A stretch of DNA of 62,156 bases, filler included, from Hausera hauseri (lineage: Eukaryota), in assembly GCA_046269625.1 (NCBI GenBank). It is 10 parts of 10 records of this genome, joined end to end, with 100 filler letters (N's around TTAATTAATTAA, not from the genome) between each part and the next. Parts side by side here need not be neighbours in the genome. Positions count along the whole stretch, not along the records: positions 29,387 to 36,926 come from JBJURY010008012.1; 9 more parts are not named here. One strand, given 5' to 3'. A program made the position numbers and the translations under genes. This document shows positions 21,401-48,489 of this stretch, in pieces. The stretch's first letter is position 1, and the number at the start of each line of letters is the position of its first letter. A model generated the notes under the pieces. It searched no databases. It had not been told where the DNA came from and worked only from the letters and a program-made list of their open reading frames with translations.

Positions 21401-22008
21401 TAGTAAAGGTTTGATTAGACTTAGTGTGGCAAATGGTAGAAATCGGGCCGCCTAAATCGGACTGCAACAGAAAAGTAAGATTGTTTATATTGGTATTATC
21501 AGTAAGGTTTTTATTCATATTGGTTAATGGTTTCTTCAATATTGATTTTATAGTTGAGATAGGCTGCATGATTGGTTGGTTATTTGTAGTGGTCGACTTT
21601 GTTAAACTGCTTTTAATTATACGATGTTGTCTACAATCCACAAGGAGGTTGTAGAAGGATAAGAAATCAGACCCAAGTATTGGAGATTGTGTGTCGGCAA
21701 CGATGAATATCCAATTGAAAATGTCGGAGAATGGTGGTAAAGTGAATGAATCTTTGGATGTGCCAAAAATTCGTGAAACGTGGCCATTTGCTGTGTACAG
21801 TTTGGTGTTAGACGGGGAGATAGATAGTCTTTTGATGGATGGTGTAATAAAGAAACAGCTGCCCCAAAGTCAATGAGGAAATTAATTAAATGATTGGATT
21901 CGGAGGTTAAAGAAGCTCTTAGTACAAAAACGGCATAAGTACGGCTATTAGATTGAAAACGTTTGCCTGTGCCAGTATGTTCCGAAACATCTGGCAGCTT
22001 TACGAGTT

Positions 22009-22803
22009 TTATGGAGGCACAGGACTTACGTTGTTGGAAAGAGTAGATCGTGGTGAATGAGATCGGTTAACGAAAGTGCTACCAGTAACGCAATTATGTG
22101 CTTTAGAATTAAATTTGTTATGATAAATACAGATATTGTCGGGTTGTTTAAAATGGGAAGCATAAAATCTGCAACCTAAACAGCATTTAGTAGAGTTGTC
22201 TTCAAATTTGGTGTTATAGTAACACACCATTGACCACGTAGGTGACCTCGCATGCCTTGAATTTTTAGGTGAAATGCGGCTATGGTTCTCATCGGAACGA
22301 TTTCGTCTAGGCATGGACAAAGCTTCGATTTTTGATGTGAGTGCAAAAATTGTTTGATGAATGTTGGCGTTTTCGGCGCGTAAAATATTTATCTGTGAAT
22401 TTAGATTAGCTATGTCACTAGCTTGTTGAGTTGTTGGTGCTTGTAATGTAGCGGTTACTAATGATGCTGTATGTTCATGTAAAAGCTCGTGGGTTTTGTC
22501 AGCCAGTTGTGCTAGTTTTTGTAGTGACGATGTGTCCTCTACTATTGTTAATAGTGCGCGTATGTCTCTTGGCAAAGATTGTAGAAAATACCTGCGTAGT
22601 AGATCGGCGTTATTTGTTTGGTTAACGCCAAGGATACTCAATTTATTTAGTGAGGTTTGTAGACATTCTGAGGGTATCGACGTATCTATGGTGTTGTCAT
22701 TGAAATATTTCTGGATAATGTTAACCAGAGAAGGCTCGGAGAGGTTAAGGACGGCGTTGAGTAGTGTTTCGTTTAAGTCTACGGTCTGAAAAACGGTGGA
22801 CAT
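22009..22803 (-). CDS. gag: CsRN1-type Gag with two CHCC-like motifs
   Basis: LLRRYFLQSLPRDIRALL..LAQLADK core; CYYNTKF..KCCLGC and CIYHNKF..NCVTGS. Confidence 0.8.
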   Translation of the reverse strand: MSTVFQTVDLNETLLNAVLNLSEPSLVNIIQKYFNDNTIDTSIPSECLQTSLNKLSILGVNQTNNADLLRRYFLQSLPRDIRALLTIVEDTSSLQKLAQLADKTHELLHEHTASLVTATLQAPTTQQASDIANLNSQINILRAENANIHQTIFALTSKIEALSMPRRNRSDENHSRISPKNSRHARSPTWSMVCYYNTKFEDNSTKCCLGCRFYASHFKQPDNICIYHNKFNSKAHNCVTGSTFVNRSHSPRSTLSNNVSPVPP

Positions 22804-22877
22804 TAAACCGGGTGTCTAACCGAGTTAAATCGGTATATAGGCAAATTGAATATCCAGTAAGTATTGAACAATCAAAA

Positions 22878-25118: not shown

Positions 25119-25661
25119 ATGTCATACGTATCGATTGGAGACAACATCTATTGCGACTCTGTAGCACATATCTGTCAACACTTTTTAAATCAAAAGTACA
25201 AGGACATATTTAAAGTATGCAAGTCAGATGCAAGTAGGTACATGAAATTTGAACTGACTAAAGATACTGTCGACATTTCATTGGGCAAAGCTTTGGTCAT
25301 GGTATTGGGTTTTGAAAACCAGCGGTTTGAGGCATTGAATACGAAGCCGGCGGCGGCACATGTTGCAACTCTTAAACACAAACTAAAAACTGGACTTAGT
25401 CAAATGTACATTTATGTGAACGTCACCGAACTGATTTTGGTCGGTGGAGTACGTGTACCACTACACTGTACAATTTATCTGCAAATCATCAAGTATACTG
25501 CTGGTGACGATAAGTCAAGCTCGATAATCCAATGTACCTACATGTACAACTACATTTATAAAGAATGTTGAAGTGAATATCCCATGTGACGTGGGCTATC
25601 TTATTGAATTTCCGTGCGGTACCACAACCAGTCTAACTCTTCATTTCCGTAAAATTCAATA
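25119..25661 (+). pseudogene. Minor capsid protein (penton-like), 3' half only
   Basis: MYIYVNVTELILVGGVRVPL..TTTSLTLHFRK; homologous to 1280-1815. Confidence 0.8.
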
Positions 25662-25666
25662 ACAAA

Positions 25667-26026
25667 ATGATTGATTCTGAAATCGTTTCCATTTACAGTA
25701 AATCCCAGCATGGCGGTGAAATGCCGTATTTCGTTGGTAAACAGTACGGCTCAAGATGGTTGCGTACATTGGCACGTTTAGCATTTCCGGTGTTGAAGCG
25801 TATTGGAGCCGTGGCAACAAAATCAGCACAGGACGTACTATATGAAAACAAATCGATTTTACCGTCATTGAAGGATCACGCATTGTCAGAAATAAAAAGC
25901 GCTGCACCGAGATTCGTTGAATCAATCAGAAAACAATTCGCTGGCAGTGGCTTTAGAAAATGCCGTAGAGCATCATCGAGCTCATCAACTATAAACAAAC
26001 GTCGTTGTCGTACGATTTTCGATTAA
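25667..26026 (+). CDS. Polinton core/membrane-active protein (PM / pVII-pX-like)
   Basis: Intact 119 aa; QHGGEMPYFVGKQYGSRWLRTLARLAFPVLK; basic tail; lies directly upstream of MCP. Confidence 0.78.
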   Translation: MIDSEIVSIYSKSQHGGEMPYFVGKQYGSRWLRTLARLAFPVLKRIGAVATKSAQDVLYENKSILPSLKDHALSEIKSAAPRFVESIRKQFAGSGFRKCRRASSSSSTINKRRCRTIFD

Positions 26027-26033
26027 CAGACAA

Positions 26034-27264
26034 ATGGCATGTGCAAAATCGGAATTGTATATTCGCAAAGCCGCGCCAAAAGTTGTTATTGACAATGCGG
26101 CATTTGAAGAAATCTGCCCCGTTTATTCGGTTTCAACGGACTATAACATTGACATTCAATTCAACATTATGGCATATGAGAATGAATATCTCGATTTGAA
26201 CGATACGTTAGTTTATGTAAAAGTCATTGTTTAAAGGGAGGCATCAATGGTTCTCGCTGCAACAGACACTGTCACAATGGCCAATTACGTTTTCCTCACA
26301 CTATTCCAGAAGGCTTCACTGACTCTAAACACCATCAAAATTGAAGGCAACACTAGTCTATACAGTATCAAAGTACTCATTGAAACGGCTCTGAATTACA
26401 GTGCAGACACAAAAACGACTTACTTGATGAAAACCATCAGATGTGACACCACTACAGCAAACCGTCACTCATGGGTGGCAGAATCAAAAGGGCTTACAAT
26501 GTGTGGACCGCTGTACTTTGACTTTTTCGATCAGGCGAAATACCTACTGCCCGGTGTTAAAGCCATGATTCGACTCAAATACAGCGACAATGCCTTTTGT
26601 TTGGAAACCACCGTTGCAAATCTCAAACCCATACTGAATATTACCGAGGCACGATTATACGTACGTCGTGTAAAGGAAGAAACATCTGTGCTCATGGGAC
26701 ATCGATTGGGCTTGGAAACACAAAATGCCTGTTACCCTATACAACGCACAGAACTCGTCACTTACACCATACCCAAAGGTTCAACTACGTTTTGCAAAGA
26801 TGCAATGTTTGGCGACATGCAATTGCTAAAATTTGTGCTCGTTACATTTCAAACGACTGTTCAACAAACGGGTAGTTATACCACGGATTCGGAAACGTTT
26901 ACCAATAGCAATGTGAATTACATCAGTTTGGGCCGGAATGCGGATTTCGTTGAGACGCACAAACAAGACTTTGAGTCCAATGATTACGTTTGCACATATA
27001 TGCAATTTATCGTACTCAACATGTTTTCTGAACAAAAACATAAACAATGGCATATCGATGGATTTGTTCAAGTCCGCCTATCCATTCTACACCTTTGTTC
27101 TGGCTCCGCACTATGTCGTTGAACAGACTCAACTACCTCAGCAGGGAAACCTGCGATTGGAGGTTCACTTTGCTAAAGCGTTTCAGCAATCTACCGTGAT
27201 GTACAATTACGGTGCATTTGATGCAGAGGTTGAAATAACGGAAAACGGAACCGTCGTTGTATAA
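26034..27264 (+). pseudogene. Major capsid protein (double jelly roll), nearly full length, one stop and one frameshift
   Basis: MACAKSEL..EYLDLNDT..MCGPLYFDFFDQAKYLLPGV..ITEARLYVRRVK..GNLRLEVHFAK, matching group-1 Maverick MCP motifs; ~410 codons. Confidence 0.9.
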
Positions 27265-27377
27265 ATAAAATCTGCTGTCTCACTTCTTCGCCGTACTATA
27301 AAGTAATTTATTACTATTATCATTATACTTAATTCATATTTAGCTCAACCGAGCTCAGTAATTGCGGAAAACTGCTT

Positions 27378-27701
27378 TTGGGCGTGAAATTTTGTGGCGT
27401 GGTTCCACTAAATGGTGTGCCGCATGATTTACGACAAACTGGCGACAGTGGCTTTATTGTCAATGCACATACTTCGTCGTTGCCGGGCAAACATTACATT
27501 GCTGTGTACCTCCACCATCCGACCAACGTCGTCAGAGTATTCAATCCGCATGGATTTTACTATCCGTCATCGTTAGTTTCGCAAACTGAATGGCAATCAT
27601 CATACCGTGTTGAATATAATCGAGTTCATCATCAACATCCAATGACTATACCGTGCGGACATTACTGCCTATTGTGGCTTACATTACAATCACTTTTGTG
27701 A
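27378..27701 (+). CDS. Adenain-like virion maturation cysteine protease
   Basis: IVN..SSLPGKHYIAV..FNPHG..HQHPMTIPCGHYCLLWL gives the H-(D/N)-Q-C catalytic pattern; follows MCP. Confidence 0.88.
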   Translation: MGVKFCGVVPLNGVPHDLRQTGDSGFIVNAHTSSLPGKHYIAVYLHHPTNVVRVFNPHGFYYPSSLVSQTEWQSSYRVEYNRVHHQHPMTIPCGHYCLLWLTLQSLL

Positions 27702-27879: not shown

Positions 27880-28461
27880 TGATTTTGACTTTTTAAAAAT
27901 GCGTTTATTGTCGTTCGTTCGGTTTCGTTACATTTTCACCCAGATCCATTGGTCTCATCGTGAGGCGGTTATATAAAATGCTCAACTACTGATGGATTGC
28001 GTGCTCAACCAATTTCCACAACCAGCAGACTTGAACAATGGAAAATTTTTACCGTTTGAAATTTCCCCATCAATTTTTTCCAATGTTCCCATGATCAGAC
28101 AACGTTGAAATTGTGCGCATTCGATTCCCCGACATTGATTTGATATTTGCACCGAACATTGAGCAATTCGTAACTCGTGTCTTGTTTCTCATAAAACATT
28201 TCCTGTTTTGCTTGTTTTGCTTCTGGCACCGTCCAGTAAAATTTTGAACTCTCACCGCGCTAGAAACATTTTCTCCACTCATCGAACTCCACCGATTTCC
28301 ATCGGTGACGTGCGACATGTGACGTGCTTCCGGCTGGGGAAGGGGTCTCCGACCAAAAAACATGAAATGCTCAGAACTGCGAGATAGGTTGGGAAAACTA
28401 TGTTTCAGGTCCATCTGAGCATTTTTTGGTATCGGGGGTGGATCGGACACTTCTACCTACT
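27880..28461 (-). repeat. Candidate Polinton terminal (TIR) region beginning AGTAGGTAG
   Basis: Homologous to 45148-45700; homology stops sharply at AGTAGGTAGAAGTG in both places; here it abuts Tc1 coding sequence. Confidence 0.55.
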
Positions 28462-28462
28462 A

Positions 28463-29286
28463 GCAGCATATAAAGTTAGCTACAAGGAATTAGCTGAAAG
28501 CTTTCACGCTTGAAAAGCAACAGTGATTGATTTAGTATCTAAAAGAGGTAGACATCGAATATCATAAGATCTTCAAGATCGGCAGCTAATTCGCCTAGCA
28601 GTTCACGATTCAACAGCAACTAGCCGAAATCTGGCACAACAATGGACTGCTGGAAGCAGTATTCATGCCCATCCACGAAAAATACGAGGTCGATTATGCA
28701 AAGCAGGTGTATATTCCTACATTGCTCCCAAGAAACCTTTACACACAGCCCAACACCGTGCCAGACATCTGCAGTTAGCTAATGATCATATCCATCGGAC
28801 ATTAGCTGAATAGAAGCGTGTACTCTACCGATGAAACTCTGATCAACCTTGTGCAAATTATGCAACGTCGGCGTTTCAGGAGTCGTAGGGGTGCAGGTCG
28901 AATAACAAACATTAGTCTCTTTTAGCTTCGGTGGTGTCTCCATAATAGTATAGGGTGCGTTTTCCTGGGAAGGTATATTTCCCTTTCAGCGCATACGGGA
29001 GACTATTAATGCAGAAGCATACATTAAAGTGCTTCAAAATAATGCGCTACATTTTACGGCTGCAAGAAGCAATTTAATATCAGCAAGATAACGCACCTGC
29101 GCACTGATCTCAGAGTTACCAACTGGTTCAACCAACATCATGTCCATGTAATGGAATGGCCAGCCTGCAGTCCGGACCTGAACCTTCTGGAGAACCGTTG
29201 GGCTAAACTGAAGTCTGAGCTAGAGAAAGAACGCATTCACGAATTCAATGAATTATTTGATGCAGCCAATCGTATATTCCAGTATT
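28463..29286 (+). mobile_element. Tc1-like transposase remnant
   Basis: QDRQLIRLA, KKP..TAQHRARHL, QQDNAPAH and MEWPACSPDLNLLENRW motifs, with frameshifts. Confidence 0.9.
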
Positions 29287-29386
29287 NNNNNNNNNNNNNN
29301 NNNNNNNNNNNNNNNNNNNNNNNNNNNNNNTTAATTAATTAANNNNNNNNNNNNNNNNNNNNNNNNNNNNNNNNNNNNNNNNNNNN

Positions 29387-30100
29387 AAAACTTGGTTTCA
29401 ACGTGCGGCGGAAATTCAGCGTATTTATAAGGTTTCTCTTCAATCGTTATCGCTGATACTCTATACGTGTCTCCTAAAGTAGTATAAGCATGGAGCTTGA
29501 CAGGAGTCTGCGCGTTATTGGCTATTCTAATCGGTACACGACCGGAGTGTACTCTCGTTAGCACATTACTAAGTGTTATACAAGAATTTAACGTTTCCCT
29601 TGGCTCAAAGTATACTGGTTGATCGTCATCTTGCTGAATTTGTGCGTAAATTATTATCTCCGTTCTTGGTGGTATGTTCTCATCTACCGGTATCCATACT
29701 TCTCCAAATTTTCTATCCCTAGCGTTCTTTACGCCCTTTTTTGGTCTAATTTCAATTAACTTTCCTGTTTGTAAGTCGACCGCTATATTCGATAGCCTTT
29801 TCAACAAATCGTATCCTAAAACAACATCATCAGTTAATTGCTCCATAATTGCGAATTCATGACGAAATGTCTGTCCGATTAATTGGACTTCTGGGTTACA
29901 TTTAAACATTGGTTTTGACATTTGGCCAAAAGCTCCTGTACTTCCTGGATCTTTCGTAGATGGTGCATATAACTGTCCTCTTAGCAAATGAGGTATTGAA
30001 TCATTTTTGATGTAAGACATCTCATACCCCGTATCAATTAACGCGTAAACTTCCCAATCCTCAATAATGATTTTGGCGAACGGTCTTCCTTCGATCACTG
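29387..30100 (-). CDS. Retropepsin-like aspartic protease plus post-protease beta-rich region, in frame with the Env TM and tail
   Basis: RPFAKIII..VYALIDTGYEMSYI..DVVLGYDLL; IPPRTE..VPIRIAN..PVKL..TTLG; same ORF (29331-30911) as the Env TM segment. Confidence 0.9.
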
Positions 30101-30789
30101 TTCCGAAGCAGTTCGATGCTACTTTCGAACGTTTGGTCATTGATATTTTATGTCCGTTTAATCGTATTTCTGCTGCGGATACTATGTTTTCCGATAACTG
30201 TCTTAACTCTTCGTTCGGATATAATTTGTTATTTTCTACGTGCAATTTTTCCACTTCATGAGTACTAATTAGTGGCTCCTGATTGTTAGTATGTAGTTCA
30301 GTATGTTGGAAAGTTTTAAATCTTGGGTTGTCCCAAACTGTCGACCTAGTTTCAATATTCTTAAATTCTCTTGGTAAATACAACATCTTGGGATCATCTG
30401 CGGATTGTCGATAGCACATTTTTCGTAGAATTCCGTAACGTTTTGTTCCCTCGCAGGGATCTTCTACATTAAATGTTCTTTTATAGATTTCCGTGTGATA
30501 TGAGCTCATGGATCGTTTGTCACAATCTTCGTAGAGCGGAGCTGTAGGAGGTAACATGGGCAATGGTGCATTAACGACGGAGTACACCTTATGCCTATTT
30601 ATTCCTGCAAGTGTTTCTCCTCCCTTAGGCTTGTCATCATCTGAATTATTTCTTTGTGTAATAGGTTTTGTAAATTTTTGTTTCAGTAGGAATATAGGCC
30701 TTCTTCTTCTTTTACGATTATAATAGCCAACATGGCGTTCTACATCTGATTTCCATCTATTTTCTTCGTATGATTTCAAGAATTTTTCA

Positions 30790-32610
30790 AAAGGCGTTAT
30801 GATTGCAGTCAGCATTTTACATGAAAATCCAGTTAGTGTAAATATTTCGTATCTATTTATTACTGCTTGGATGACTGTCTTAATAATTTGAATTAGAAAG
30901 TATATTGCCAAAAATCCTGATGTGGCTTATCCGAAAATCAAAAATCTTCCCCAAATTTTGTAGATTATTTCTGTTGTTACTCTCTGATAATGGTTTACGC
31001 CAAGTAATAATTCCCATTTAGCCTGATATCGTGTGTCGTCTACTACAGATGCCATTGCTCGATTTAGCTTATGTGTTCGTTGTCGTGGAAAGGCAAAAAA
31101 TTGTCTGAAAGCCTCGATTTCCTTCGGCCTGTATATACCTTTTGACGAGTGTCTTGAAATTTATCGTCTGTAATTCCTTTTGCAAGATTCGTTCCTGTCA
31201 GCTTGTTTGGAGCGGCAGTGATACCTCCATTCGGTAAACTGACCCAGTCTGTTTCACTACGTCTAAACATTGGTTCTCCTAAGCTCGCTTTACAATCCTT
31301 AAGAATGGTTGGTTGTGTCGCATTATCTAACAACACTCTTGTCAGTGGCATAGCTAATCTCGGAGTATCCTGATAAATGACAGGAAGTTCTTGAAGGCAA
31401 CGTTTTTCCTCTACGTTGATGGGTACTTCTCTCTTTTCACATTCATAGGTTAGTAACACCTCACCGGTAACTCGACCGAAAATTCCTTCTCTCATAGGAA
31501 TTATTGGAGAAGCCAATTCTGGGTTTGCATATATAAGAGCCATTTTAGTTCTCATAATTTCGGTGTCCAATTTACAGTCGTTCATTATCATTTTGTGGTA
31601 TAATTCTGTTATCCCAACTTGTCCCTTATAGTAGAAATAGTCGTCCCTATTTTTGAGGTAGTCCTCAATTCGAACGTCTTGAGTTTCCAATTTGTAAGTT
31701 TTCGTGTTTATTTCTGTTTCGGCTACAAAGAACGCTTCATAGTTTGTGGCGAACATTACTACATCGCAGCGTGTCATCATCCCTTTCTTAATAAATTTTA
31801 GTCCGTGCGGGTCGGAAATTAGTATAGTCGGTGTCGGGTGTTCCGATACATCTTCGCGTGTTCTCGAATTAGTCTCCGATTTATCTACGTATCGTTTTCC
31901 GCTGGTTTCGTTAAACTTTAACTCTTTGATTCTGATGAAGTTACAATTCCTTCCAGAGGGAGGTTCCCATATTATGACCGAGCTTCTAAAAGCGCATGTT
32001 CCGTCCTGCATATGACATTTCTGGTTCTCGGTGTATAGTTTCGTAACACTATGAAACATTACTTTTTGTGATCGCATTTCTGCTTCGTAGAAATCCACGA
32101 CCACGACATTTGATTCTAATCCTTTTCCCGTGTCATATTCCGCTCCATTACAATGTCCGCTATGCATATCCAATCTCCCAGCTACTACTTTGTATGCTCT
32201 AATTATTTTTCCGGGCTTCATTTCCAGTTGCATGCTATCCCATTGTATCCTTCCAGTTTCTTTAGCTTGTTTGCAATGTTGGCGCTCTAAATTCATCGGA
32301 ATTAAAGGGGTGGTGGGCTTAATTATGGAGGAGTGCCCATGTATTAGTCCGCAATGAAAAATGCTGCGTGAGCGTTTTAGTATGCATTCCATACCATCTA
32401 ACGATACCAATTCTTGTTGTTGATACAGGAAGTAACTTTTCTCGCGCGTTTCTAGTTTGTGTGGCCTCGCATCTTCGCAGGCTTCTAGATCCATTAGAGA
32501 ATATTTTTGTCCCAATTTAAACTTGTCACAATCGTAGACAGTTACTGCACTTATGTGCTTCATTATCATCATTAATGTAAATAAACTAATCAGCCAGTTC
32601 GATTTAGTTT
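30790..32610 (-). CDS. env: Class III viral fusion glycoprotein (chuvirus G / herpes gB-like) with internal signal peptide and TM anchor
   Basis: WLISLFTLMMIMKHISA|VTVYDC..YSL..C; C...HCG..HSS; GHCNGAEY..NVVVV; GEVLLTYEC; CLQELPV; then (frameshift) GIY..E..FP and WGRFLIFG*ATSGFLAIYFLIQIIKTVIQAVI..GFS..LTA, the motif series of chuviral-type glycoproteins. Confidence 0.85.
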
Positions 32611-33319
32611 TTCGACCTCCAACGTCCGATGTTGTCAGACTACGTAATATATCGTCGAGCCTATTGTTGCCGGGTTTATCTTCTTCCTTATCAAATAATT
32701 TTGTCCAATTTACTTCGCCGGGTATTTTTCTCGCCGCCTTCCGTGCTAAATTTATTGCTCGGTTGATTTCAGTTTCTCGGTTCGGGTTTATTTTGACGGC
32801 TAAATACAGCATAACTTTCCTCAATTCTTCATTCGTGTTTTCTACCATAATCTTCTCTATTACCGACTCATCGGTTAAGTTACTTTTTGATAGTTTGAAA
32901 CGAGTACTTTTCATTACTTTAGCTGCGTCGAAAATTATCTTTTCCTTATCATCTAGTACGTCTCCTCGAAAACTCGAATAATTCACGATCCGTACTAAAT
33001 TTTTTATCAACTCCGTTAACTCCTCGTTTTCGGTACTAAGGGTCGGAATCGACATTTGTCTCAATTCTCTGATTAGCTCTCCTTTGTAATCCACTTCTTC
33101 TCGAATCTTCCTAGGTCTGCCGACCGGACGTTTCGATCTTGGACCTTTAGGGTTTGCATGGTTTAGTGGTACTAAATTTATATCGTATTGTTCTTTATCT
33201 TCGTCTGTTTGTAAATACTCAAAATATAGCGCCGCATCTCGAACTCCCATAATTTGTCCAACGCATTGCTCTGCTATGGCCTTGCTTGTGGCTTCCTCCT
33301 TTGTCTGTTCATTAGTTGC

Positions 33320-33541
33320 TATTACTACTATTCGATTTGTTTCGTCGGGGATGATCCCTACGTCTATCAATTGTTCTAAGTCATCTAATATTCTACCCCT
33401 AAAATAAAGTCTATAACTCAGCTCATTTGTCCCTCCATTCTTCACTAGCCATTTTTTTACATCCTTTACGTAAGAATGTGTAGTCAGTTCGCATTCTTTC
33501 TCGTCCATCCATTCGGCTGACACCATAACTTTCATCGTCAC
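33320..33541 (-). CDS. Ubiquitin-like domain within the 1333-aa ORF
   Basis: VKDVKKWLVKNGG..YRLYFRGRILDDLEQLIDVGI matches the ubiquitin-fold pattern V..+K..+...G...RL.F.G+.L.D...L.D.GI; no C-terminal GG. Confidence 0.7.
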
Positions 33542-36369
33542 CTCAGGTTTAGCCCTTAAAGTTTTAGCGTACTTCTTTATCAGCAGTTTCGGCACCGTAC
33601 TATAAATTGTGTTTTCGCTAGACAACTTAGTTAAAGTTGGAATAAGTTGTCGTAGTTTATTCTCAGTAATATTTACGTTAATCAATTCCATCAAATCTTT
33701 CTCAGTTAGGGCTGAGTCCAGTAGCATTTCTACTTTGAACCTCCTGTCCTTGGGACAAGTTTCTATCTCGTTTAGCTGCACGGGAGTCATGGGTTTTTCG
33801 GCCAGTATCTCGTCGAAATATGCATCCCAGTCGGGTTCGTTTCCAGCATCTGGAAGCTGGCAGTCCACTACAACCGTATTGGCTCTTTTATTGTTCTCCC
33901 GAATTCCCTTTAATTTGGGTTGTATTTCTTTCATTCTCGTAGTTCGGAAACCTACTCCATTTCCACAGGCATATTGTATAGCTTTTAGTAATTCCCCGAA
34001 TTCGTTAGAATCAATCAACCCTTTTTGATGATAATCTGTTAATTCAAGAATCACATCCTTTTCCCACCGTTTTACAAATTCTCGTTTATTTTTAATCTCC
34101 GATTCAGTAAAAGCATACTTATTACGATAGACCGCGAGCTCTTTTGTTAATTCATCCATTCTTATCGCTTTTTGTTTCGTTTTGATAGCCGTTTCTTCTA
34201 CCTTGTGTATTTTGGGCATCAGTTGCCTCATCTGCTCATCGCTGATTTCCGCCATTTCCACCAATAAATGAGCTAATTCATACATCTCATTTATGGTCTT
34301 TGAATCCGGATCCATCGCATCCGATAATTTCTTCACGAATTTGTGTTCCTGAAAGCTAAAATGTGGATCATTTCCTATTTCTATTAACTTGGTATGGAAA
34401 TTCTGATCTGATCCGACCATCCATTCTTGAGGTCTCTGTAAGAAACTTATTGCGTCAGTTAGCGTATCTCGGTATCCTGGACAAATGTCTAGGATTTCAA
34501 TATCTTGTGCAAGAATTTCATTGATTGGTTTTCCGGTTAAGTATTGAATCCCTTCCAGCCGGACGACCTTTAACTTTGAATTTACATCGTGAATCATATT
34601 CCGTTTCTCCGTAAAATTTGTTTCTTCGATCAATTTGTAGATTTCTTCCATTGTTGATAATTCTCGTTCCTTTTCCATAAATTTCAGTTGTCGCAACGCT
34701 TCAAATTGAGTACGGATATTTATCTCTATTTTCAACGTGGCTAAGTTGTGCGCACTCTCCTCTAATCGCTGCTTCACCGTTTGCTCGCTTTGTGGAAATT
34801 CCGCTTTACGATCTTCTACCAATTTGGTTAGTCGCGCTACTAACTTGCACCATTCTGGCAATTGATTTGTAATTACAGGCTTCGCCATTACGGCTTTATC
34901 TAACATCTTGTACGCATCTTCTAGTTCATCATCCGGTCCTTTCAGGAAATTCATAACTCGTCCGATATAGTTAAACTTGTCCTTGTATTCGTCTAATTCT
35001 ACAGTACAGGCCTTTACTATATATTGAGTCTCTTCATGGTTGGGGAACATGATACGGTTCCTCAAGCTATAAATTTGTGCTCGCTTTTAATTTTCTATCT
35101 TCAGCCGGTTCTCCAAGTTTGTATATTGTTTGAGCGTATCAAATGCGATTTTTATCATCTTTATTAAAGGAGGAATATCTAACGGATCTATACCCATTAT
35201 TTCCAAGTCGATATTACTGCGTTTGTTAGGCGGTCTTTCCCTAAGCCGTTTAATCATCGCATACCGAATTTCGTTCATGATACGTTTTACGTTACGAACT
35301 ACTCTCTTCAGTTTCGGGTTTTCTTTTAATGTAGACAATAGGTTTTGGGTCTCAGTGACTTTTACTTCAACTTTATCTTCGTTCTTATTCCATCCTTCTA
35401 CAAACTCGACTCCGCTTTTGATCCACAATTCTAATTCGTGGTTCCATTTTGGTAATCTTTTCGGAGATACCTCTTCCGGCTGGCGTACCTCGATTGCTTC
35501 AACGAATTTCCCTTCGCTACGTAATTTCAAACTTTTATATAGCTTCTCGGCGTATTGTTGTTCTTTTCCAGATATATCGACTTGTTCGATAATTCGCTTG
35601 AGCTTTTCTAAATTTCGTTGCAATATTTCAGGCTCTAAACAATAAATTCTTATTTTCTTTAATTCGTCGGCGTTTTTCCATGAACGTCGGATTTTCCACT
35701 TCTTGGGCTCAAAATCTTCAGTAATCATTGTTTCTTCCTCACTAATGGGAAGTGGGCATATTTCGTTAATTTCGTCAATTGACTCTTCTGGTTCTGGTGT
35801 ATTTAAGCCAAGGTCCGTGCCGCCTTCTAGAACGACGCTCGGCTTTTCTGTTTTCTCAATTTTCTTTTTGTTATTTTGGAACGCGAACGGCTTCTATGTT
35901 TGGTTTTTAATGATGGGCTGCGGCCTCTATTTTTTGTAATTTTAAGTATTAATGGCTCCATGAATTCTTTTTCTGTCGCTTCATCTTCAGTAAGTTTAGC
36001 AACTTTTTCAACTGCGAGGTCGGGCTCTGCGTCTAAATCGACTACCGTCGATGGGCCTGATTCATCGGGCACCTTGTTACTTGTCGGAATACTCTTCTTC
36101 TGTGTCATATCGCTTCGCTTAGGTGCTATCTCGTGCTCGTATTCCGTTTCGGGTTCTGTTAGACCATGATATACCTCTAGCAATCGCAATTTATCTCCGT
36201 ATTCTCTTCTGGCCATCAAAATTTGTACGTTCGTAGTGTCTGGTTGAGTCTCCAAGAATTTTCTCAAATCCTGTATATCGATGATGGTGGTCGTATCTCC
36301 CCGGACGCCATATTTTGCTTCTAAGTTCTCATTAATTCTAATCATACTAGTCTTATTTGGTTCCGTAAA

Positions 36370-36926
36370 TGAAACGCTACGCGGATTTGGACACGACCTC
36401 GAAATGTGTCCTTCTTTGCCTCAAGTAAAACAAACCAAGTTTCCATTCCTGCCGACTCTCTGTCGACCGTCTTCGTTAACTGGTGACTTGGATCTAATTA
36501 TGCCTTTACTAAACTGAATTGACGGGCTTTGCGTATTATCGGTATATCGTTTGTTATCATTACCTCGGTAATCGCCAGTTTGATTTGAGTAGGTCGAACT
36601 TCTGTAACTTCCTCTATTCCTATCCCAATCCGAGTCTGGTTTGTTTGTATAATTATTACCTCTGCCATTTCTGTAACTGTTATTATTATTCCTATTTCCA
36701 TAATTTCTATTACCTGTAAATCGTCTGTCATCTCTTCGGTCATCTCTTCTATCATTCCTTCCATGATTTTCATTGCGATTTCTATCATTACGGTCACTCC
36801 GATCAGTATTCCTCTCGTTTCTATCGTTGTGCCTGGCGTATCTATCCAGCGCCATTTCTAGATCTTGAGCTAGTCGTAAGGTTTCTTCAAAATTTTCAGG
36901 TCTGGCCAGAATCAATTGTTTAACTA
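36370..36926 (-). CDS. gag: Gag C-terminus with R/D/N-rich region and CCHC zinc knuckle (one Cys codon now TGA)
   Basis: LARPENFEETLRLAQDLE capsid C-terminal motif; CFT*GKEGHISRSC fits CX2CX4HX4C. Confidence 0.85.
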
Positions 36927-37599
36927 NNNNNNNNNNNNNNNNNNNNNNNNNNNNNNNNNNNNNNNNNNNNTTAATTAATTAANNNNNNNNNNNNNNNNNN
37001 NNNNNNNNNNNNNNNNNNNNNNNNNNGGAAATTTGAAAATTGAGGAAACATATACACTGAATCGTCGAGATTGTCATCCAGGAATAATGGGTGGTAAAAT
37101 ATTTTCGTTGATGTAGGTCTATAAATCTAAGACGGATGGATACAAGAACTAATGACTTCCCATAACATTTTGTCTGTCATTACAAAAAAATATCTGGAAA
37201 CTGGCCTCTCAGTACTTTCATTACAACTTACATGACTTTACGACATTCATCATATGGACTTTTTTAACATCGTACTCTTCACCTTAAATTTCAGAAGCCG
37301 TAAATCCAACAGTTCCTAGCATCGTATCCAAAATCGCCATGCTTAACATTTAGATATCGATCCGTCGTTTGCTTTCTAAAATGAGAGTAACATGTTGGAG
37401 AGATTGCTATCGCCACTTGAAGTTGAATTTTCGCCTCTTAGGAAATGAGCTCTGTCCCCCCATGGTCAGATGAAGACTATAAAAAGAAGAATAAATGGAG
37501 ATTATAGTAGGAAAAGGAAGAACTTGTATCTATTTGGTTATCGTCCGTGTTAGACGTTGGACTCCGTCTATAAACTTCTCTTTGCTGTAAGTACTTAAC

Positions 37600-40500
37600 G
37601 TCACATGACGTGATTTGTTAGATGTTACTGGTGCTTTTGGAGTTATTCGAGGGAGAGATACTGTGGATTTTGTGGTGCTTTGGGAGGATGCTTAATAAAA
37701 AGGAGAGAGTAGAGAAGAAACTGAGAAAGGAAAAGGATCACGCAAAGAAGGTGAGACTGGAGATGGCACCGAATCGCGCGATGAAGGTGAAATGAGTAGT
37801 GGATGTGCAGGCGATGACGGAGAGGCAGATAGTGAGGGAGCAGTTGATGATGACGAAGTGAAGAGAGCTGATTTTGACTCGAGAGTGAATGCTGCGAAGA
37901 ATTAAACTCATCAAGGACATTAGATGATGACTCGAGTGTAGAGAAGTTAAAGTTGGGATTTGAAACAATGCTGTTATCCTGGTCATCGTCAACGAAGAAG
38001 GCTGGATTAAGATTAAAGATATGTACGATTTGACATTTGTCCTTGCGTAAAATAGTAGTGGTATGCGAAGAAAGGTTCAATAATTTGTAAGGGTTAACGT
38101 ATTGGGGCCGAAAACCAGAAGGCAACGGATCCTTCAGCCATACAAACTTATCTGAGTGTAAGTCGTCTGGGATATAAGATTTGTCTTTATTCATGAAACG
38201 GCAAAAGCGTTTGAGTTGACATCAGCAAAGTGGGGCTTTGCCGCACGAATAATTTCATTTGACGGACTTTCATCAAGATTGGAAAGCTCAAATAGTGCAC
38301 GAATTGGTGTCTCAAAGAGAGCCTCAGCTGGAGCACAGCCTGTGGTGGTGGATGACGTGTTGCGCCATCCGAGTAGGACAAGAGGAAGAATAGAAGTGCA
38401 GTTTTGATTGTTGTTTGCCATGATTTTTAAGCAAATCTTCATAGTGCGATGAAATCCCTAGAGAAGACCGTTTGCTTGGGGATAGTACGACGTCGTATGG
38501 AAATGGGCTATCCCAAAGTGCTTTACAAGAGATTTGAAAAGATCAGCTTCAAATTTCGGACCCTGGTCCGTTATAATGTGACGTGGTGAGCCAAAATGGC
38601 TGATCCATATCTTGATAAATGCATCAGCTACTAAGTCAGTGTATTTAATCGAAGCGGAACGGCTTCCGGCCAGCCAGAAGCGCGATCCATCATGGATAGG
38701 ATATATTGATAACCATTGTCGGCAGATAGAGGACGCACAAGATCCAAATACATGGTTTCAAAACGAGAAGTGCAAGGGAAGTGGTAGAGTAATGATTTGA
38801 GGTGTTTATGAAACTTGTATTGTTGACATGCTACACATCTCTTGACCCAGATCTGTATATCGTTACGCATAGTTGGCCATACAACGTGGCGTTGCAGTAG
38901 ACGAAATGTGGCTTTTAAACCCGGATAATGAAGAGAGTGAAAGTGATTGAAATCTGTCTTTTGTAGCGATGGAGCAAAAATGATTTTCTTGTTGGTCGAG
39001 TTGGAAGTGTCATAATATATGTCATCTATGATTTCAACAGATTTGAAAGCTTGGAGAATATAAGATGATGGCTGATTGCTTCTCAGGACCTCAGAGGAAG
39101 AAATTGGCTGATCTGTAATTGAATTAACCGACCGCGAAAGAAAGTCTGCTACTAAATTTTCGGTGCCTTAAATATATTTCATGGAAAAACTAAAGTTGAC
39201 AGTTATGATGTTTGTCGTTCTTGCCAGGGTGAGGGATGTTTCAAAGTCATTATGTGAAGTAGATGCTTATGGTCGGTTTGGATGATAAATTGGCGTGATA
39301 GAAGCTAGTGCTTGGAAAGCTTTACCGCTAGAACTACAGCCAAGAGTTCACGATCGAATGTTGAGTATCAGCTTTCGGGTTGCGTGTGCTTTCGGGAATA
39401 GAATTCTAATGGTACATGGATGACATTGTATATTTGGCGTAATATTGCACCAATTGCTGTGATTGAGGCATCGGTAGTTAATATTAGTTCAGCGTTTAGC
39501 TTTGGAAAGACCAGATTATCACAGTTTTCAGACCTTCACGAAGGCGATCAAATTGGTTTACTAAATGGGGAGTCCAAAGGATTTATTATCTTTTCTTTCC
39601 AGATGAGAGGCGTGCGAAAGGTGCCGTTATTACGGAGAAGTGTGGCACGTATTTGTGTACGAAATGCAATGTCCCTAGAAAAGTCCTCATATCGGTAATA
39701 GTAGTTGGCAACGTCACATTTTTTAACCGTTGTAAGCGATCAGGCTGGGGCGAATGTCCTTTGGGAGTAATTATGTGGCCTAAGAAGTTGACACGTTTCT
39801 GGAAGAAATTGCATTTGGTGAAATTAACTTGCAGGTTGCTTTGATGCAATCTGTGAAGAATAATCATAAGGTGCTTATTATGTTGTTGGATGGAGGAGGA
39901 AGCGACTAATATGTCATTTATGTATGGGCGAGTAAAATCAAGACCAGAAAGAACGGTGTCAATGTGGCGCTGAAAGATCTGATATGCGCTACGAAGGCCG
40001 AAAGGCATGAAGATGTATTCATAAAGACCAAATGGTGTGATGACAACAGTTTTTGGTATATTATTAGGAGCAACAGGAATTTGATTGTAGGCTTTGTGCA
40101 GATCAATGGTAGAATAGGTATTGGTGTTGTTGAGGCTACGAACAATATCTTTAATGAGTGGTAGTAGATAGACATGCAACAGTTAGATTGTTTAATTGTC
40201 GATAGTCGCCACATGGTATGTAGATACCATCTTTCTTTACTACTAAATGAAGAGGAGACGCTCACGGTAAATGCTATCTCCGAATGATTCCAAACCTTTC
40301 CAATTTATTAAATTCCTGTTCCACAGATTTACATTTGCGAGACGACAAGGGTCTGACCTTTTGTTTGATCGGCCTCTAACACTCTGTTATTATGTGATGA
40401 TAATTTGTGGATGGAGGCTTAAAGTTGAAGTCTTTTTTAACTATGCGAAAGCAAGACGTTGTGACGTATGATTTAAGATTGGAATCTAGAGACAAGAATG

Positions 40501-41117
40501 AATGAGGCATATCATTAGAGAGAACAGCTCCAGTGATTGACAAAAAGCAACTGGCATCGCTACTGTACACGCCTAATTTGGATTTTTGGTATAGAATAGA
40601 TTTATGATTGTCGTTCATAACTGAAATATTATCGACTTTATCGGACGTTTTTATAGATGAAGAAGCATTCACCAGGTTCATAGATGAGTGCAGTGAATTG
40701 CTCGCTAAAATATCTACGAGGCACATGTTTGGAGTTGCAATTGATTTCCTGCTTAAAAGACAGCTGTATTTGCAATCGACCAAAAGATTATATGCAGCGA
40801 GAAAATCTGAGCCTATTAAGGGAGATTTAATGTTGGCCACGTGGAACTTCTGGACAAACTTATGCGGCAAGTTTGCGAATGTAAAAGTCATTTCCGTGGT
40901 TTCTGCAACATGCAACGGTTGGCCACTGGCAGTGAAAAGCGGTGGACAGGAAATCATAGTCTATGTAGGAACGAATGACAAGCGAAGGAGCGAAAAGACA
41001 GCTCCTGAGTCTATAAGGAAGTCGATATGTGAAGTATCTCTGCATAGCAGTACAGCTTTGAACAGAAAGACTGCAGAGGCCGTGTTGAAACGGCCAGAAG
41101 ATTACGTTATGTTGCCT
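37600..41117 (-). mobile_element. Degenerate Ty3/Gypsy pol (PR-RT-RH-IN), related to 18455-22810
   Basis: FLIDSGAVFS protease, IDLHKAYNQIP..TPFGLYEY..YINDIL RT, LITDAS RNase H, MDRASGWPEAVPL integrase. Confidence 0.92.
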
Positions 41118-41217: not shown

Positions 41218-44150
41218 ATACTTAGTAACATACTGACAGGAGTACACTCCGGTTGTGTACCAATCAGAATAGCAAATAGTGCACCGACTCCCGTCAAGCC
41301 TTATGAGTATACTACTTTAGGAAATACTTATAGAGTGTAGTCTATAACTATTGAAGAAAAGCCTTCCAAGTATGCCGAATTCCCACCTCATATCGAAACT
41401 AAGTTTTCCTCCAAATCTTACTTCCGATTCTATGAATTATTATGCCGTAATAAATCGATTATTGCTAAAGACAACGAAGATATCGCCAGAGCAAAAGCAT
41501 TAAAATTGACTATCCCGGTTAAGAAAAAGCCGGGTTCAAATGAAGAAATAGATCTTGAGGACCAGAAGATTCAGAAATGGTATCCTCCACCTCATTCACT
41601 GAATCACGAGATAACAAAGGAGGTCGAATGGATGCTTAAGGCCGACATAATCAGGCCCAGCTATAAATCTTGGTATTCACCAATTCTTATTGTCAAAAAG
41701 AAAGATACTAAAAAACATCGATTCTGTATTGACTACAGAGCATTAAATAATCCTATGATGAAAGATTCTTTTTCATTGCCATCAGTAAAAGAGGCTCTAG
41801 GCAAACTCTCAGGAGCAAAATGGTTTATCACTCTGGATTTACAATTCGGATATTGGCAAGTAAAAATCGAGGACGAAAATCGATATAAGACAGCGTTCAA
41901 GATACATGATGGCGTTTATGAATTTAATGTCATGCCATTCAGTGTTACTACCGGACCAGCCATCTTTACAAGGATGATGAATAAAATGTTAATGGAACAA
42001 GACCATGCTCTTGCATACTTAGATGAGGTAATGATGGCGTCCAGGACAGAAGAAGAATACTTAAAATATATCGAACACACGCTGATGCGACTGGAACAGG
42101 CCGGATTGAAACTAAATCCGAAGAAATGTAAATGGGCTCAAAACGCAGTGTTCTATCTTGGCCATATAGTTAGAGAAGGAGGATGAAAAACAGATAAATC
42201 ATTGTTGAACAAAATAACAGATTGCATGAAGCTACAAAATCAGAAAGAGTTAAGACATTGGCTAGGTCTCTGCGGATATTATGCAACTTATGTTCCCGAC
42301 AACTCGAAATAAATGCACCCCTGTATCGCCTACTTAAAAAGGAATTAAATGGAAATAGAATGATGTTGAACAGAAAGCTTTCGACAAAGTGAAGAAGATA
42401 TTAACAAGCGAACCCATTTTACGATACTTGGACTTTAACTTACCCTTTATAATCAAGGCAGATGCCAGTAAAGAAGGCATTGGGTATGAATTTGCACAAA
42501 ATAGAGAAGATGAAGAACTATAACACTCAATTGCTTATGAAGGACGTTCCTTGAAGAAGGCTAAAAAAAATTATTCCATCAGCGAATTAGAAACTTTAGC
42601 CGTTAAAGAAGCGCTACGACATTTTAATGTTTACGTGTAAGGGGCAAAAAATCATAATTGTTATTGATCACAGAGCCGTCAGGATCCTAAAAGGACTAGC
42701 AAACAATCCAACATGTAGACTTAACAGATGGATTGAAGACATCTCCACGTATAATATTGAGTTTTAGTATAAACCAGGAAACAAACATGTAGATGCCGAT
42801 GCACTATAGATATTAAAGATCAAAACAAGTGCAATTATTGTACTGAAGAAAAGTCAGCTTGAAGAAATAAGAGATCGTCAGCGCATCTTAACGATGAATA
42901 AAGCTTTAAAATCTCAACCGAACAAAGAAAGGATAAAATATCCATCAGATTATAGAATTTTCTGAAAAGGATATAGTACTAAAATGACGACAATTAAAGA
43001 AACATCTACGTAGGCACGGACACAAATATTGCGTTCTGAACAACAAGGGCCTCGAAAACCTTCTATATTATGAGCGAAAAAGAGGAAAACTGATAGTAAT
43101 TCCGAAAAGCCTACGAATTGAAGTTTTGATGTCGGAACACGATTCATATTTGGCTTGACACATGTCCTGGAAGAAAACATTAGAAAGAATATTGAACAAA
43201 TACTTTTGGACCAGCATTTATATCGATATAAAGAATTGGGTAAATGCTTGTGAAGCATGCGCAACTAAACAGAAAAGAGCAAAGAACTACATAGCAGAGC
43301 TAAAACCAATTGCCGTACCATATAGGCTTATGCAAGCCGTGTCAATGGATATTGTGGGACCGTTACCCACGACTCACAGAAATAATAAGTATATATTGAC
43401 TTATATAGATCGGCTAACTCATTTTGTGTAATTAATAGCCTTGACTGACCAAAAGGTAGAAACCCTAACATAGGCTGTAGTGAGAAGAATTATTTATAGA
43501 TATGGAAATCCAGATGAAATACTGACAGACCGAGGAAGAAATTTTACTAGCGAACTGTTTGGGAAGATTATTGAAATATCTGAGATTAAGCGGTTAACTA
43601 CCACCTCATACCATTCTCAATGTAATAGAATGGTTGAACGAATGAATGCAACTGTCATACGCATACTATTAACAGTGGTAGCTAAGGACTAAAAAGATTG
43701 GGACGAATTTTTAGAAGAAATCCAGTTTGCAATCAATACTACACCCCATCCGGCAACAGAATTTACGCCATTCTTCATGATATATGGACAAAAAGCTGTA
43801 TTACTCACAGATTTAGGTATGACACCACACACAGTAAATCCCGAAAATTTGGAACAAAACTTTGCAGAAGTATTACGGCGGCGACTACAAAAGTGTTGGG
43901 AAATCGCTGAACAGTTACCACAAGAATATCAAGAACAGTTTGAAAAGCAATACGATAAAAAGGCAAAGCCACGCGATTTAGAACCAGGAAATTTGGTTTA
44001 TGTACATTATCCAGTAGCCAAGAAAGGTACGTCGTTAAAACTGACTCATACGGACAGAGGACAGTCGGAGTTATCAGAGTTACGCCAACTACGGTGTATA
44101 TCAACAAGAATGGAAAGTAAGAAGTCGTGTGTATACAAAAAGTTGTTAAG
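41218..44150 (+). mobile_element. pol: Pol (RT-RH-IN) of a sibling copy of the envelope-bearing element, degenerate
   Basis: 41218-41408 is a diverged homologue of the reverse complement of 29387-29580; then RFCIDYRALN, LDLQFGYWQ, YLDEV, ADASKEGIG, CEAC, VSMDIVGPLP, TDRGRNF, VERMN in Gypsy order. Confidence 0.92.
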
Positions 44151-45146
44151 ACGGAGATACTGCCCAATAAACGCAAGATAAAAACTTCTTCAGTAATTAC
44201 TAGACAGATATCATACGTTCAGATAGTTTTAGCACTAACGTTAATTGCTTCTCGTATCCCGAGAACACAAACTCAATGGCGGTACGATAAATCTACGCTA
44301 GGAAACGTAGACGGAATATGGAAAAGCGGATTAAAGGCGAAAAATACCATAGCGGAGAAGAAACCAACAGCCGAAGACATCCAAAAACAAGAAGACACTA
44401 GACTGATACAATCAATGACCGTTAATTACTTTTCTCCAGACGCTGTCTGTGTAGGATTTAAGAATAGAAGACCATATCACGTTTTCCGGAGATTTCAAAT
44501 AGTCCTGTACGACACAGCAGTGAAGGAAAGCAAAGAAGAAAAATTTTTAACCCGGAGATTATATCCAGTGTTGCAATATAGACTTTGGACATACTTACAA
44601 CCTTACTTATCGCCTGTATTTACCAGACTCAGCAGAAGTTTATATTGAAGTAAATCCACCACTTCAGTTGGTCATTCATGCTTTAATCAAATTATTCGAA
44701 GTAAAGCCCGACGAAATGCTTCAATCCACCGACCAAATTGGAAGGATATTAGACGAGAATATTAAGGGAGTCTCAAGAAACAAAGATGGACGATGATTCC
44801 AAGTAGATTCTGGAACGGAATTAAATTTTAATCAAGAAATCTGTATTGTTTTTGAAGCAATAAGCGGAAAACTCCGAAAATAAAATACTGTTCTGTTCAT
44901 GCCGGTGTGGAACACCCATGTTGTAAGTTACCAGTAAACCAAGAATTCAAAATAAAATTTGATCTACATGACGTACGACCGAATAAACCGAGCAAACATT
45001 TGAGAACCTATTACCCGAAGAATAGAATATGGAGGATTCCAATAGAAACGACAACCGAAAAGCCAACTGCTCGAGTTAGTGCCATTACGAGACCCGTTAC
45101 ATCCTTTACACAAGTCAAACGGCGGTGGAAACGGGTAGACTCATAG
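44127..45146 (+). pseudogene. Unknown ORF continuing from the integrase C-terminus, with a hydrophobic signal-like segment
   Basis: Same frame as the GPY/F-region tail (GVIRVTPTTVYINKNGK*EVVCIQKV); ISYVQIVLALTLIA; coding-like sequence continues with frameshifts to ~45146. Confidence 0.5.
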
Positions 45147-45147
45147 C

Positions 45148-45700
45148 CCATCAGTAGTTGAGCATTTCATATTATAGCCGCCTCACGATCAGACGAAAGA
45201 ATCCAGGTGAAAATGGCAACCGAACGAAAAATACACCGAAAAAACATATTATTAAAAGTCTAAGTCAAAATCATATAGTAGGTAGAAGTGAGCTTTCAAC
45301 CCCATTTCCAAAAGTGTTCAGGTCGACCTCGGACCAAGTTTTCCCCACCTATCTCGCAATTCTGATTATTTCATGTTTTGTGGTCGAGGACCCCCCAGCT
45401 GGAAGCACATGTCACAGTTGCACATGCCACCGATGGAAATCGGTAGAGCTCGATGAGTGGAGCAAATTTTCTAGAGAGGCGAGAGTCAAAAATTTTACTG
45501 GGCGGCGCTAGATGCAAAAGAAGAAAAACAGGAAATGTTTTATGAGAAACGAGACACGTGTTACGAATTGCGCAATGTTTGGTGCAAATGTCAAATCAAT
45601 ATCGGGGTATCGAATGCACACAATTTCAGCGTTGCCTGACCATGGGAACATGGAGAAAAATTAATGGGGAAATTTCAAACTATAAATATTTCCCATTGTT
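45148..45700 (+). repeat. Second copy of the candidate Polinton terminal region (sub-blocks in permuted order)
   Basis: 45277-45700 matches the reverse complement of 28035-28461; 45148-45274 matches the reverse complement of ~27880-27996. Confidence 0.75.
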
Positions 45701-46119
45701 ATATTGCAAGGCATATAGGATCACTAAATAGTTTGCCGAATATAATAAAGAGTTTACCAAACTTACTTATGGGACATTTTGGGTCCAGTACAAATGTTAT
45801 TATTGGTTCAATTATGTTGCAAATATTGTAGAAATCTAAATTCTTCTATTTACATTAGAAAGGTCTAAGTAGATGCAGATGGCATGTTGTCCGATCATGA
45901 CATCTGCTGTGATCCTTCTGATCATCACACTAAGACTGCAGGAGGGTTAAACAGTCAGACCAGAAGCAGAAAAATGTAATCTGCAAATATTAACTGGACT
46001 CTCCCTTTTGCAGTGCTGCAAAGGAAGGAAATGCTATTGTTTTGTTTTACCATCTAAAAATGAAACCTAAAAAAGGTTTTAATATTTGCAAATATATACA
46101 TTCAATTAGTATGTGATGT

Positions 46120-46196
46120 GGGCTGCACAGTGGCGCAGTTGGTAGAGCTGTTGCCTTGCAGCAAGAAGGTTCTGGGTTCGATTCCCGGCCCGGGGT
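46120..46196 (+). mobile_element. 5' head of a tRNA-derived SINE of teleost type (probably host or contaminant DNA)
   Basis: A box TGGCGCAGTTGG and B box GGTTCGATTCC around GCTGTTGCCTTGCAGCAAGAAGG, a head I recognise from fish SINEs. Confidence 0.7.
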
Positions 46197-48090: not shown

Positions 48091-48489
48091 AAATCTTCAA
48101 CCGAAATAAACCGAACATGACTTTTGTTCCACGAGTAGTGAATTTTCGATTATGCTCTCTTCAATTAATTACCTATTTTAGAATTCCAAATATGATTTAT
48201 ACAGTGATTGTACAACTGATGTACACATTCCTCAGAACTGCTACAGTACAAAGCAACGATATTATGCATACAGATTCAACAGACTCGACTTCTTCATATA
48301 TCCAAGATGTGAAATTATCAGCTGAACAGTATATCAGCAGTTTTATGACAATCATAAAACTCACAACCAAGTCAAAGTTGATCTTTGATGAACATAAAGA
48401 TGAAATGGCCCAAAATGTATTAAATCATGTAACAACATCAGTGCAACCCGTTATTCATACAGGATTAAAATGGATCGGAAATAATTCAA

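Follow-up and report, generated by a model that had tools for sequence, protein, structure and literature searches.

A 7.5-kb contig of Hausera hauseri (assembly GCA_046269625.1, record JBJURY010008012.1) is very probably an internal fragment, now decayed, of a Ty3/gypsy retrotransposon present in many copies, in which an envelope (env) gene, coding for a protein with the fold of herpes glycoprotein B (gB), is placed between Gag and the protease. We propose, with a probability of about 0.72 for this explanation as a whole, that the family to which it belongs produces a polyprotein that is threaded through the membrane. The contig (hereafter the focal contig) occupies positions 29,387 to 36,926 of the 62,156-nucleotide stretch that was analysed, called the window, to which all positions refer. 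The window is made of short contigs joined by nine N44-TTAATTAATTAA-N44 linkers; adjacent pieces are not genomic neighbours.

The focal contig is flanked by N runs (29287-29386 and 36927-37026), and its minus strand carries, in order, the end of Gag, a CCHC knuckle, a spacer, a signal, a Cys-rich ectodomain, a transmembrane (TM) segment, a linker, a DTG protease and a post-protease domain. The features are given below, with those of a related contig; labels such as P0003 denote related proteins, and RT stands for reverse transcriptase.

29387..36926, minus strand: whole contig, very probably an internal piece of one decayed Ty3/gypsy-type element, with assembly linkers at both ends
36391..36926, minus strand: C-terminal Gag, with the end of the capsid region, a nucleocapsid stretch rich in R, D and N, and one CCHC knuckle; broken by the stop at 36421-36423
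36367..36381, minus strand: RSVSF motif directly behind the knuckle; similar [RK]xVxF in 5 of the 7 relatives checked
33545..36366, minus strand: unexplained spacer of about 940 aa, broken near 35866 (frame change) and at 35087-35089 (stop)
33314..33541, minus strand: probable ubiquitin-like domain (Pfam ubiquitin E 0.0011, below the cut-off)
33107..33130, minus strand: RPVGRPRK, an AT-hook-like motif; GRP[KR] is also found upstream of Env in P0003, P0005, P0006, P0011 and P0151
32690..33025, minus strand: helical bundle where relatives have a Bcl-2-like domain; in the focal copy the Bcl-2 match is equalled by some shuffled controls
32546..32599, minus strand: predicted internal signal sequence, preceded by basic residues and ending just ahead of the conserved xYDC start of mature Env
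30930..32545, minus strand: predicted fusion ectodomain of class III (gB/chuvirus-G-like); a frame change falls inside it near 31148, and the stop 30927-30929 comes after it
30789..30914, minus strand: predicted TM helix at 30858-30914 and, at 30789-30845, a second helix of lower hydrophobicity, both conserved among relatives
30090..30788, minus strand: predicted cytosolic tail/linker, with a basic cluster (30696-30716), PTAP (30537-30548) and LYPNEEL (30204-30224)
29790..30089, minus strand: retropepsin (DTG) protease (RVP E 0.00047; gag-asp_proteas E 0.00039)
29388..29741, minus strand: protease-RT interval domain, homologous to the interval of P0003, P0001, P0151 and P0017
41218..44650, plus strand: related, more decayed element on the contig 41218-46196, with interval domain, RT, RNase H, integrase and a signal-like hydrophobic stretch

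Six-frame translation gives a path of about 2510 codons, in agreement with the original prediction, made from the DNA alone, of some 2500 minus-strand codons from the Gag knuckle to the protease. The knuckle lies 1261 aa from the signal, the signal 542 aa from the TM segment, and a linker of 224 aa separates the TM segment from the protease. The path is broken five times, the number given in that prediction, by three single stops (36421-36423, 35087-35089 and 30927-30929) and by frame changes near 35866 and 31148. Both of the shared open reading frames (ORFs) it described were also recovered, one of 513 aa that contains the TM core and the protease, and one of 1340 aa in which about 830 spacer residues share a frame with the greater part of the ectodomain. 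The start of Gag, the RT, RNase H and integrase, and the long terminal repeats (LTRs) lie off the focal contig, whose ends fall inside the ORF. The focal copy is dead, being unable to make the full polyprotein. Logan contigs of two public runs (15,627 and 1,144) aligned to the focal contig and covered 30 of 30 bins, and no RNA run was listed as carrying it; the element is thus multi-copy, the 15,627 contigs of one run being 85-100% alike, a figure for diverged copies and not a count of intact ones.

The original prediction assigned the ectodomain to the class III fusogens of the gB/chuvirus-G type, and this assignment holds. The Pfam family PF24664 (Monjiviricetes fusion glycoprotein) matches in three consecutive pieces in model order (5-444, 474-548 and 551-605; E 8.6e-41, 1.1e-4 and 6.7e-8), far beyond chance. 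The ectodomain contains 14 Cys in 468 aa, all 14 at columns conserved in at least 90% of 123 rows. A profile of the 123 aligned relatives searched against the PDB returned herpes gB in 34 of 35 rows (best E 1.7e-4), and a direct phmmer search of the ectodomain against the PDB gave no match. In the alignment-based AlphaFold model, a monomer of 808 residues from which the broken C-terminal 70 aa were excluded, 371 residues have a predicted local distance difference test score (pLDDT) of at least 90, with the ectodomain at about 90; a model from the single sequence reached a pLDDT of 28.5 only. Foldseek of the alignment-based model placed gB first in the PDB (E 3.5e-14); among viral models the top match was a chuvirus-like G (E 1e-31). 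VIA-align to HSV-1 gB gave a Z of 11.0 over 389 aligned residues (root-mean-square deviation 7.2). The fusion domain, long central helix and crown domain that mark the gB fold are found in the model, and hydropathy points to the signal peptide and the C-terminal TM segment of a class III fusogen.

Relatives of the Env were sought in a 50%-representative set of 1.84 billion representatives, which gave 517 matches. Among the 17 best, the 14 longer than 700 aa were scanned (three of 426-492 aa were excluded), together with three weaker long matches. A protease follows Env in the same protein in 11 of the 14 long relatives, and an RT as well in 5. A Pfam Gag marker precedes Env in 4 of the 14, to which the CCHC pattern adds P0001 and P0008. 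Gag and Env share one ORF in P0006, P0011, P0013 and P0015, the last of which holds knuckle, Env, protease, RT, RNase H and integrase within 2146 aa. In a FastTree phylogeny of 119 of the 123 rows (four with fewer than 300 aligned residues were dropped), the focal Env and all 11 Env-protease relatives fall in one clade of 20 rows (SH 99), which stands apart from stand-alone glycoproteins of about 650 aa. The focal Env is 32% identical to its nearest relative, and no related loci were found in viral or metagenome contigs. P0140, a weaker Env match, shows env behind pol. The best Env match, P0001, was deposited as a protein of a Flavobacteriaceae metagenome-assembled genome, yet it is a full knuckle-Env-protease-RT-RNase H-integrase polyprotein and is likely animal DNA in a bacterial bin.

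The breaks of the focal copy were compared with its siblings and relatives. The stop 35087-35089 is absent from 33 contigs that make up 97% of the depth (3261 of 3344), near 31148 there are 15 and 5 contigs of the two runs that differ in length, the stop 30927 lies within the Env model region, where relatives read through, and the stop 36421 takes the place of a knuckle Cys. Four of the five breaks look like decay private to the focal copy. In line with the single polyprotein of the original prediction, an env that lies between gag and protease and shares their ORF appears to be the family state, with the 11 of 14 long relatives and the unshared stop 35087 in its favour, and it is likely that a continuous ORF yields Gag, the spacer, Env and Pol of this family in a single polyprotein.

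The affiliation to Ty3/gypsy, also suggested earlier, is supported by the order of Pol domains on the related contig (Pfam RVT_1, RT_RNaseH, Integrase_H2C2, rve). The order protease, RT, RNase H, integrase, with a gypsy-type RNase H and an H2C2 integrase, is found on this contig together with P0001, P0003, P0010 and P0015, and the focal contig itself carries the Ty3/gypsy mark of a Gag with a CCHC knuckle upstream of a retropepsin. The two contigs overlap over the last 62 codons of the focal path with 77% DNA and 79% protein identity, the 43 differences being distributed 7/6/30 over the codon positions; the related contig is a kindred element and another copy than the focal one. Its RT is 36-48% identical to those of the Env relatives. 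No LTR was found on the related contig. A 430-bp repeat (28034-28462 and 45276-45700) was considered as LTR and rejected: it adjoins a Polinton-like module, and none of its copies lies close to the element.

At the Gag end, the knuckle at 36391-36432 matches zf-CCHC with an E of 0.052 when the stop, which falls on its second Cys, is read as X, a match that is weak alone; P0006, P0008 and P0016 likewise have an R/N-rich stretch and a knuckle. The RSVSF motif behind it may be a protease site or a docking motif for protein phosphatase 1 (PP1). At the other end, the DTG motif lies at 30027-30044, and the protease aligns to residues 1134-1351 of P0003 (E 1e-16). Several related polyproteins (P0002, P0003, P0005, P0006, P0013, P0014 and P0151) contain two to seven retropepsin-like domains. 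The interval domain behind the protease, a candidate dUTPase-like domain by comparison with Burro elements, had no support from Pfam or the PDB.

We propose the following course of events. Translation would begin at Gag in the cytosol, and the internal signal would direct the Env ectodomain into the lumen of the endoplasmic reticulum, where host signal peptidase likely cuts. This cleavage would split Gag-spacer from Env-Pol, with the signal stub still anchoring Gag-spacer in the membrane. The TM segment would bring the chain back to the cytosol, so that the linker, the protease, RT and integrase stay attached to the Env tail. By forming trimers, Env would gather Gag and Pol in a single patch of membrane. 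There the PTAP and LYPxL motifs of the tail would take over the role of a Gag p6 and recruit the endosomal sorting complexes required for transport (ESCRT), through TSG101 and ALIX; dimers of the protease would form at this patch and free the enzymes, making the cuts that remain. The topology is read from Kyte-Doolittle hydropathy. The signal (1.76) is the only hydrophobic peak of the 1340-aa ORF, and it is followed by one strong TM helix (2.07) with a basic cluster behind it. Read in this way, Gag-spacer and tail-Pol would lie on the cytosolic side and Env on the lumenal side. Once a single ORF is granted, such a threaded arrangement is strongly favoured.

YPxL motifs bind ALIX and PTAP binds TSG101. 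The Env-tail linkers of the focal copy and of 10 relatives were compared with shuffled sequences (P0010 was dropped, no protease motif having been found in it, and the linker taken for P0014 runs past its first protease). YPx(1-3)[LI] is present in 7 of the 11 linkers, against a shuffle mean of 1.29 and with 0 of 2000 shuffles reaching it, and P[ST]AP in 2 of the 11 (mean 0.03; 1 of 2000). Since the linkers span 49-309 aa and are otherwise unlike one another, the shared motifs argue for selection. Budding through ESCRT by means of these motifs has, from sequence evidence, somewhat less than an even chance.

If Env tails carry late domains and tether Pol, this would be a second route by which enzymes and envelope are packaged together, one that needs neither a Gag-Pol fusion nor a separate env RNA. 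Going further, and tentatively, these elements could be enveloped invertebrate retroviruses that assemble inside-out, with Gag tied by the signal stub, Pol tied to the tail, ESCRT signals in the Env tail, an attachment partner behind the integrase and a spacer for host control; taken jointly, this is rather doubtful. Within it, a type I membrane protein behind the integrase may partner the gB-like fusogen, and the spacer of about 950 aa with its ubiquitin-like domain would be family-specific cargo of no known fold. A second signal peptide, ectodomain and TM segment are fused behind the integrase in P0001 (2257-2560), P0003 (2486-2740), P0151 (4361-4730) and P0010 (from 2780). Three of these post-integrase proteins have a C..L.P.T.Y motif in common, P0003 and P0151 match in blastp (E 5e-4), and their fold is presumably FN3-like; a second envelope or attachment protein is possible. 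On the related contig, a signal-like stretch occupies the corresponding position (44121-44650, plus strand) and matches none of the post-integrase proteins of the relatives.

Several points weigh against the threaded polyprotein. The second hydrophobic helix (1.38), if it crosses the membrane, would place Pol in the lumen. PPxY is not enriched in the tails (1 of 11 linkers, shuffle mean 0.27), linkers of related sequences are not independent samples, and the YPxL motif lies 15-45 aa ahead of the protease, where it may serve protease folding or cutting. No single record spans the whole element, the RT-integrase part being taken from a related and not identical contig, and the spacer has no blastp match among the 153 fetched proteins, relatives included. 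The stops 36421 and 30927 do not appear among the 40 rows listed of 1178, and few contigs cover the frame change near 35866, where one differs in length (depth 29.3 of 145.9). Finally, an output ratio of 1:1:1 for Gag, Env and Pol is ill suited to building particles.

This ratio would be solved by a programmed frameshift near 35866, giving an excess of separate Gag while a minority of ribosomes enter spacer-Env-Pol. Gypsy elements often frameshift just behind the nucleocapsid region, and the break is indeed a -1 switch at that place, where contig cover is thin. However, the overlap of the two frames (35830-35893) contains no usable canonical slippery heptamer, the in-register one at 35935 runs into stops, the sole contig listed with a gap near 35866 differs in length, and P0006, P0011, P0013 and P0015 hold Gag and Env in one ORF; we regard a programmed frameshift as improbable. 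Far more remote is the idea that env entered an ordinary gag-pol element as a nested insertion, be it an endogenous chuvirus G gene or some other element, or that the assembly joined the two as a chimera. The assembly is fragmented and the closest viral structures are chuvirus G proteins, but the signal and ectodomain are in frame with the spacer and the TM segment with the protease, the Env groups with Env-protease polyproteins and not with stand-alone glycoproteins, and env is skipped by none of the 15 joints listed of 75. The original prediction had named a nested env with its own ends as one outcome that would overturn it; no sign of one was seen, no repeats flanking env and the strand bias being even over 30001-37000, and this explanation is already largely refuted.

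It is also conceivable, if unlikely, that the Env of the polyprotein no longer serves spread from cell to cell and is a membrane tether or a relic, the element transposing within the cell. All 14 ectodomain Cys at conserved columns, the complete fold of the model and the enriched tail motifs speak against this explanation. In its favour, the fold requires no furin-type site, and in the portions available the two papers on comparable elements (PMC6431247 and PMC13524379) give no particle or infectivity data. Our preferred reading stays that of a polyprotein threaded through the membrane.

The nematode endogenous retroviruses (ERVs) of Sacco and colleagues reportedly have a continuous gag-env-pro-pol ORF. 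As far as PMC13524379 was available, which credits Sacco et al. 2022 for them, these ERVs have ENV before POL and an RNA-virus glycoprotein captured by a metavirus; their hosts are nematodes, and they are likened to the focal element by description only. The original prediction could not confirm that the layout was unreported, and the accessible parts of two papers have it in print. The giant gypsy elements Burro/GYPSM1 of planarians, published in 2019 (Arkhipova and Yushenova, PMC6431247), have an in-frame env between gag and pol, with matches to mononegavirus-type glycoproteins, ubiquitin/SUMO-like and BCL2-like domains before env, and a dUTPase-like protease-RT interval. The focal element shares with Burro, in a comparison by description and not of sequences, the CCHC Gag, a long accessory region with a probable ubiquitin-like domain, the in-frame env, the protease, the interval domain and the RT; unlike Burro, it shows one knuckle (the start of Gag being off the contig) and one protease in the focal copy. 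Burro-type MATH, BIR and ankyrin cargo had no Pfam match in the 7.5-kb focal contig, which the element overruns at both ends (Burro exceeds 30 kb).

GAG-ENV-POL elements with a gB-type Env, falling in several clades, have been described from nematodes, bryozoans and flatworms (Chary and Hayashi, eLife 2026, PMC13524379), as far as the accessible part goes; this paper was the sole match in a literature search on env between gag and pol. These errantiviruses share with the focal element the Ty3/gypsy Pol, the position of a gB-type Env and the many copies, and differ from the focal copy in its decay and its 1261-aa spacer. Among the rows of supplement 2 that were compared by eye, the focal Env resembles those labelled Schmidtea 'C1a', whereas the rows from bryozoans and nematodes do not resemble it. 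Six 9-residue motifs were taken from the Schmidtea rows, and none of them occurs in the 153 fetched proteins. The accessible main text has no mention of polyprotein, ESCRT, late domain, Burro, BCL or ubiquitin, and its figures may show ORF continuity. Elements of the BEL/Pao and gypsy types with a chuvirus-type G (Dezordi et al. 2020, as cited in the available part of PMC13524379) have a PF24664 glycoprotein like that of the focal element, but there env is a separate 3' gene behind pol. The gag-env-pol layout is thus already published, and the focal element is a divergent, decayed member of this group, strict Burro status aside. What is new here is the longest spacer among the relatives measured and the late-domain-like motifs in Env tails; the contribution of the focal copy is mainly that of a divergent branch whose spacer is very long. 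Particle building by a Gag-Env-Pol polyprotein is not addressed in the portions of PMC6431247 and PMC13524379 at hand, and the literature search found no work joining gag-env-pol elements with late domains, ALIX or particles.

The focal spacer (1261 aa) is longer than those of the six relatives measured (220-612 aa). Its first 940 aa or so have no Pfam match, no PDB match under E 0.8 and no Atlas match. The segment 33314..33541 is probably a ubiquitin-like domain, judging from profile comparisons: its PDB matches are mostly ubiquitin and ISG15, the relative P0011 has such a domain at the same place (slice E 0.0033), and a hidden Markov model (HMM) from three relatives gave the focal slice a score reached by 1 of 200 shuffles (0 of 60 in hhalign). 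Pfam detected no ubiquitin in the slices of P0006 or P0016, and the fold is absent from the AlphaFold model, where pLDDT is below 60. For the helical bundle, Bcl-2-like matches were obtained in the relatives P0004 (E 0.00096), P0011 (E 0.055) and P0002 (E 0.2). In the focal copy a first HMM scored above 200 of 200 shuffles, and in later tests 14 of 500 and 11 of 60 shuffles scored as high; the structure matches to BCL-xL (Z 5.3) and BAK1 (Z 5.0) are tied with unrelated bundles, and the Atlas gave no usable match for this helical part. P0011 carries, in one ORF, the order knuckle, ubiquitin-like, AT hook, Bcl-2-like, Env.

Other contigs of the window carry further mobile elements. Two inverted copies, 78% identical, of a Polinton/adintovirus-like module lie at 4-1781 and 25147-26966, with further parts at 27333-27701 and 48469-50155; we take it to encode a capsid and a protease, for which there was no Pfam match. 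A piece with DNA_pol_B_2 and Endonuclease_7 lies at 49736-50152. Ordinary gag-pol gypsy relics without env are found at 6546-7816, 18922-22815 and 37643-40960. The end of the related contig has a tRNA-like head of a short interspersed nuclear element (46128-46196), which presumably resembles those of fish. Finally, 28600-29286 contains a decayed piece of a transposase that we assume to be Tc1/mariner-like.

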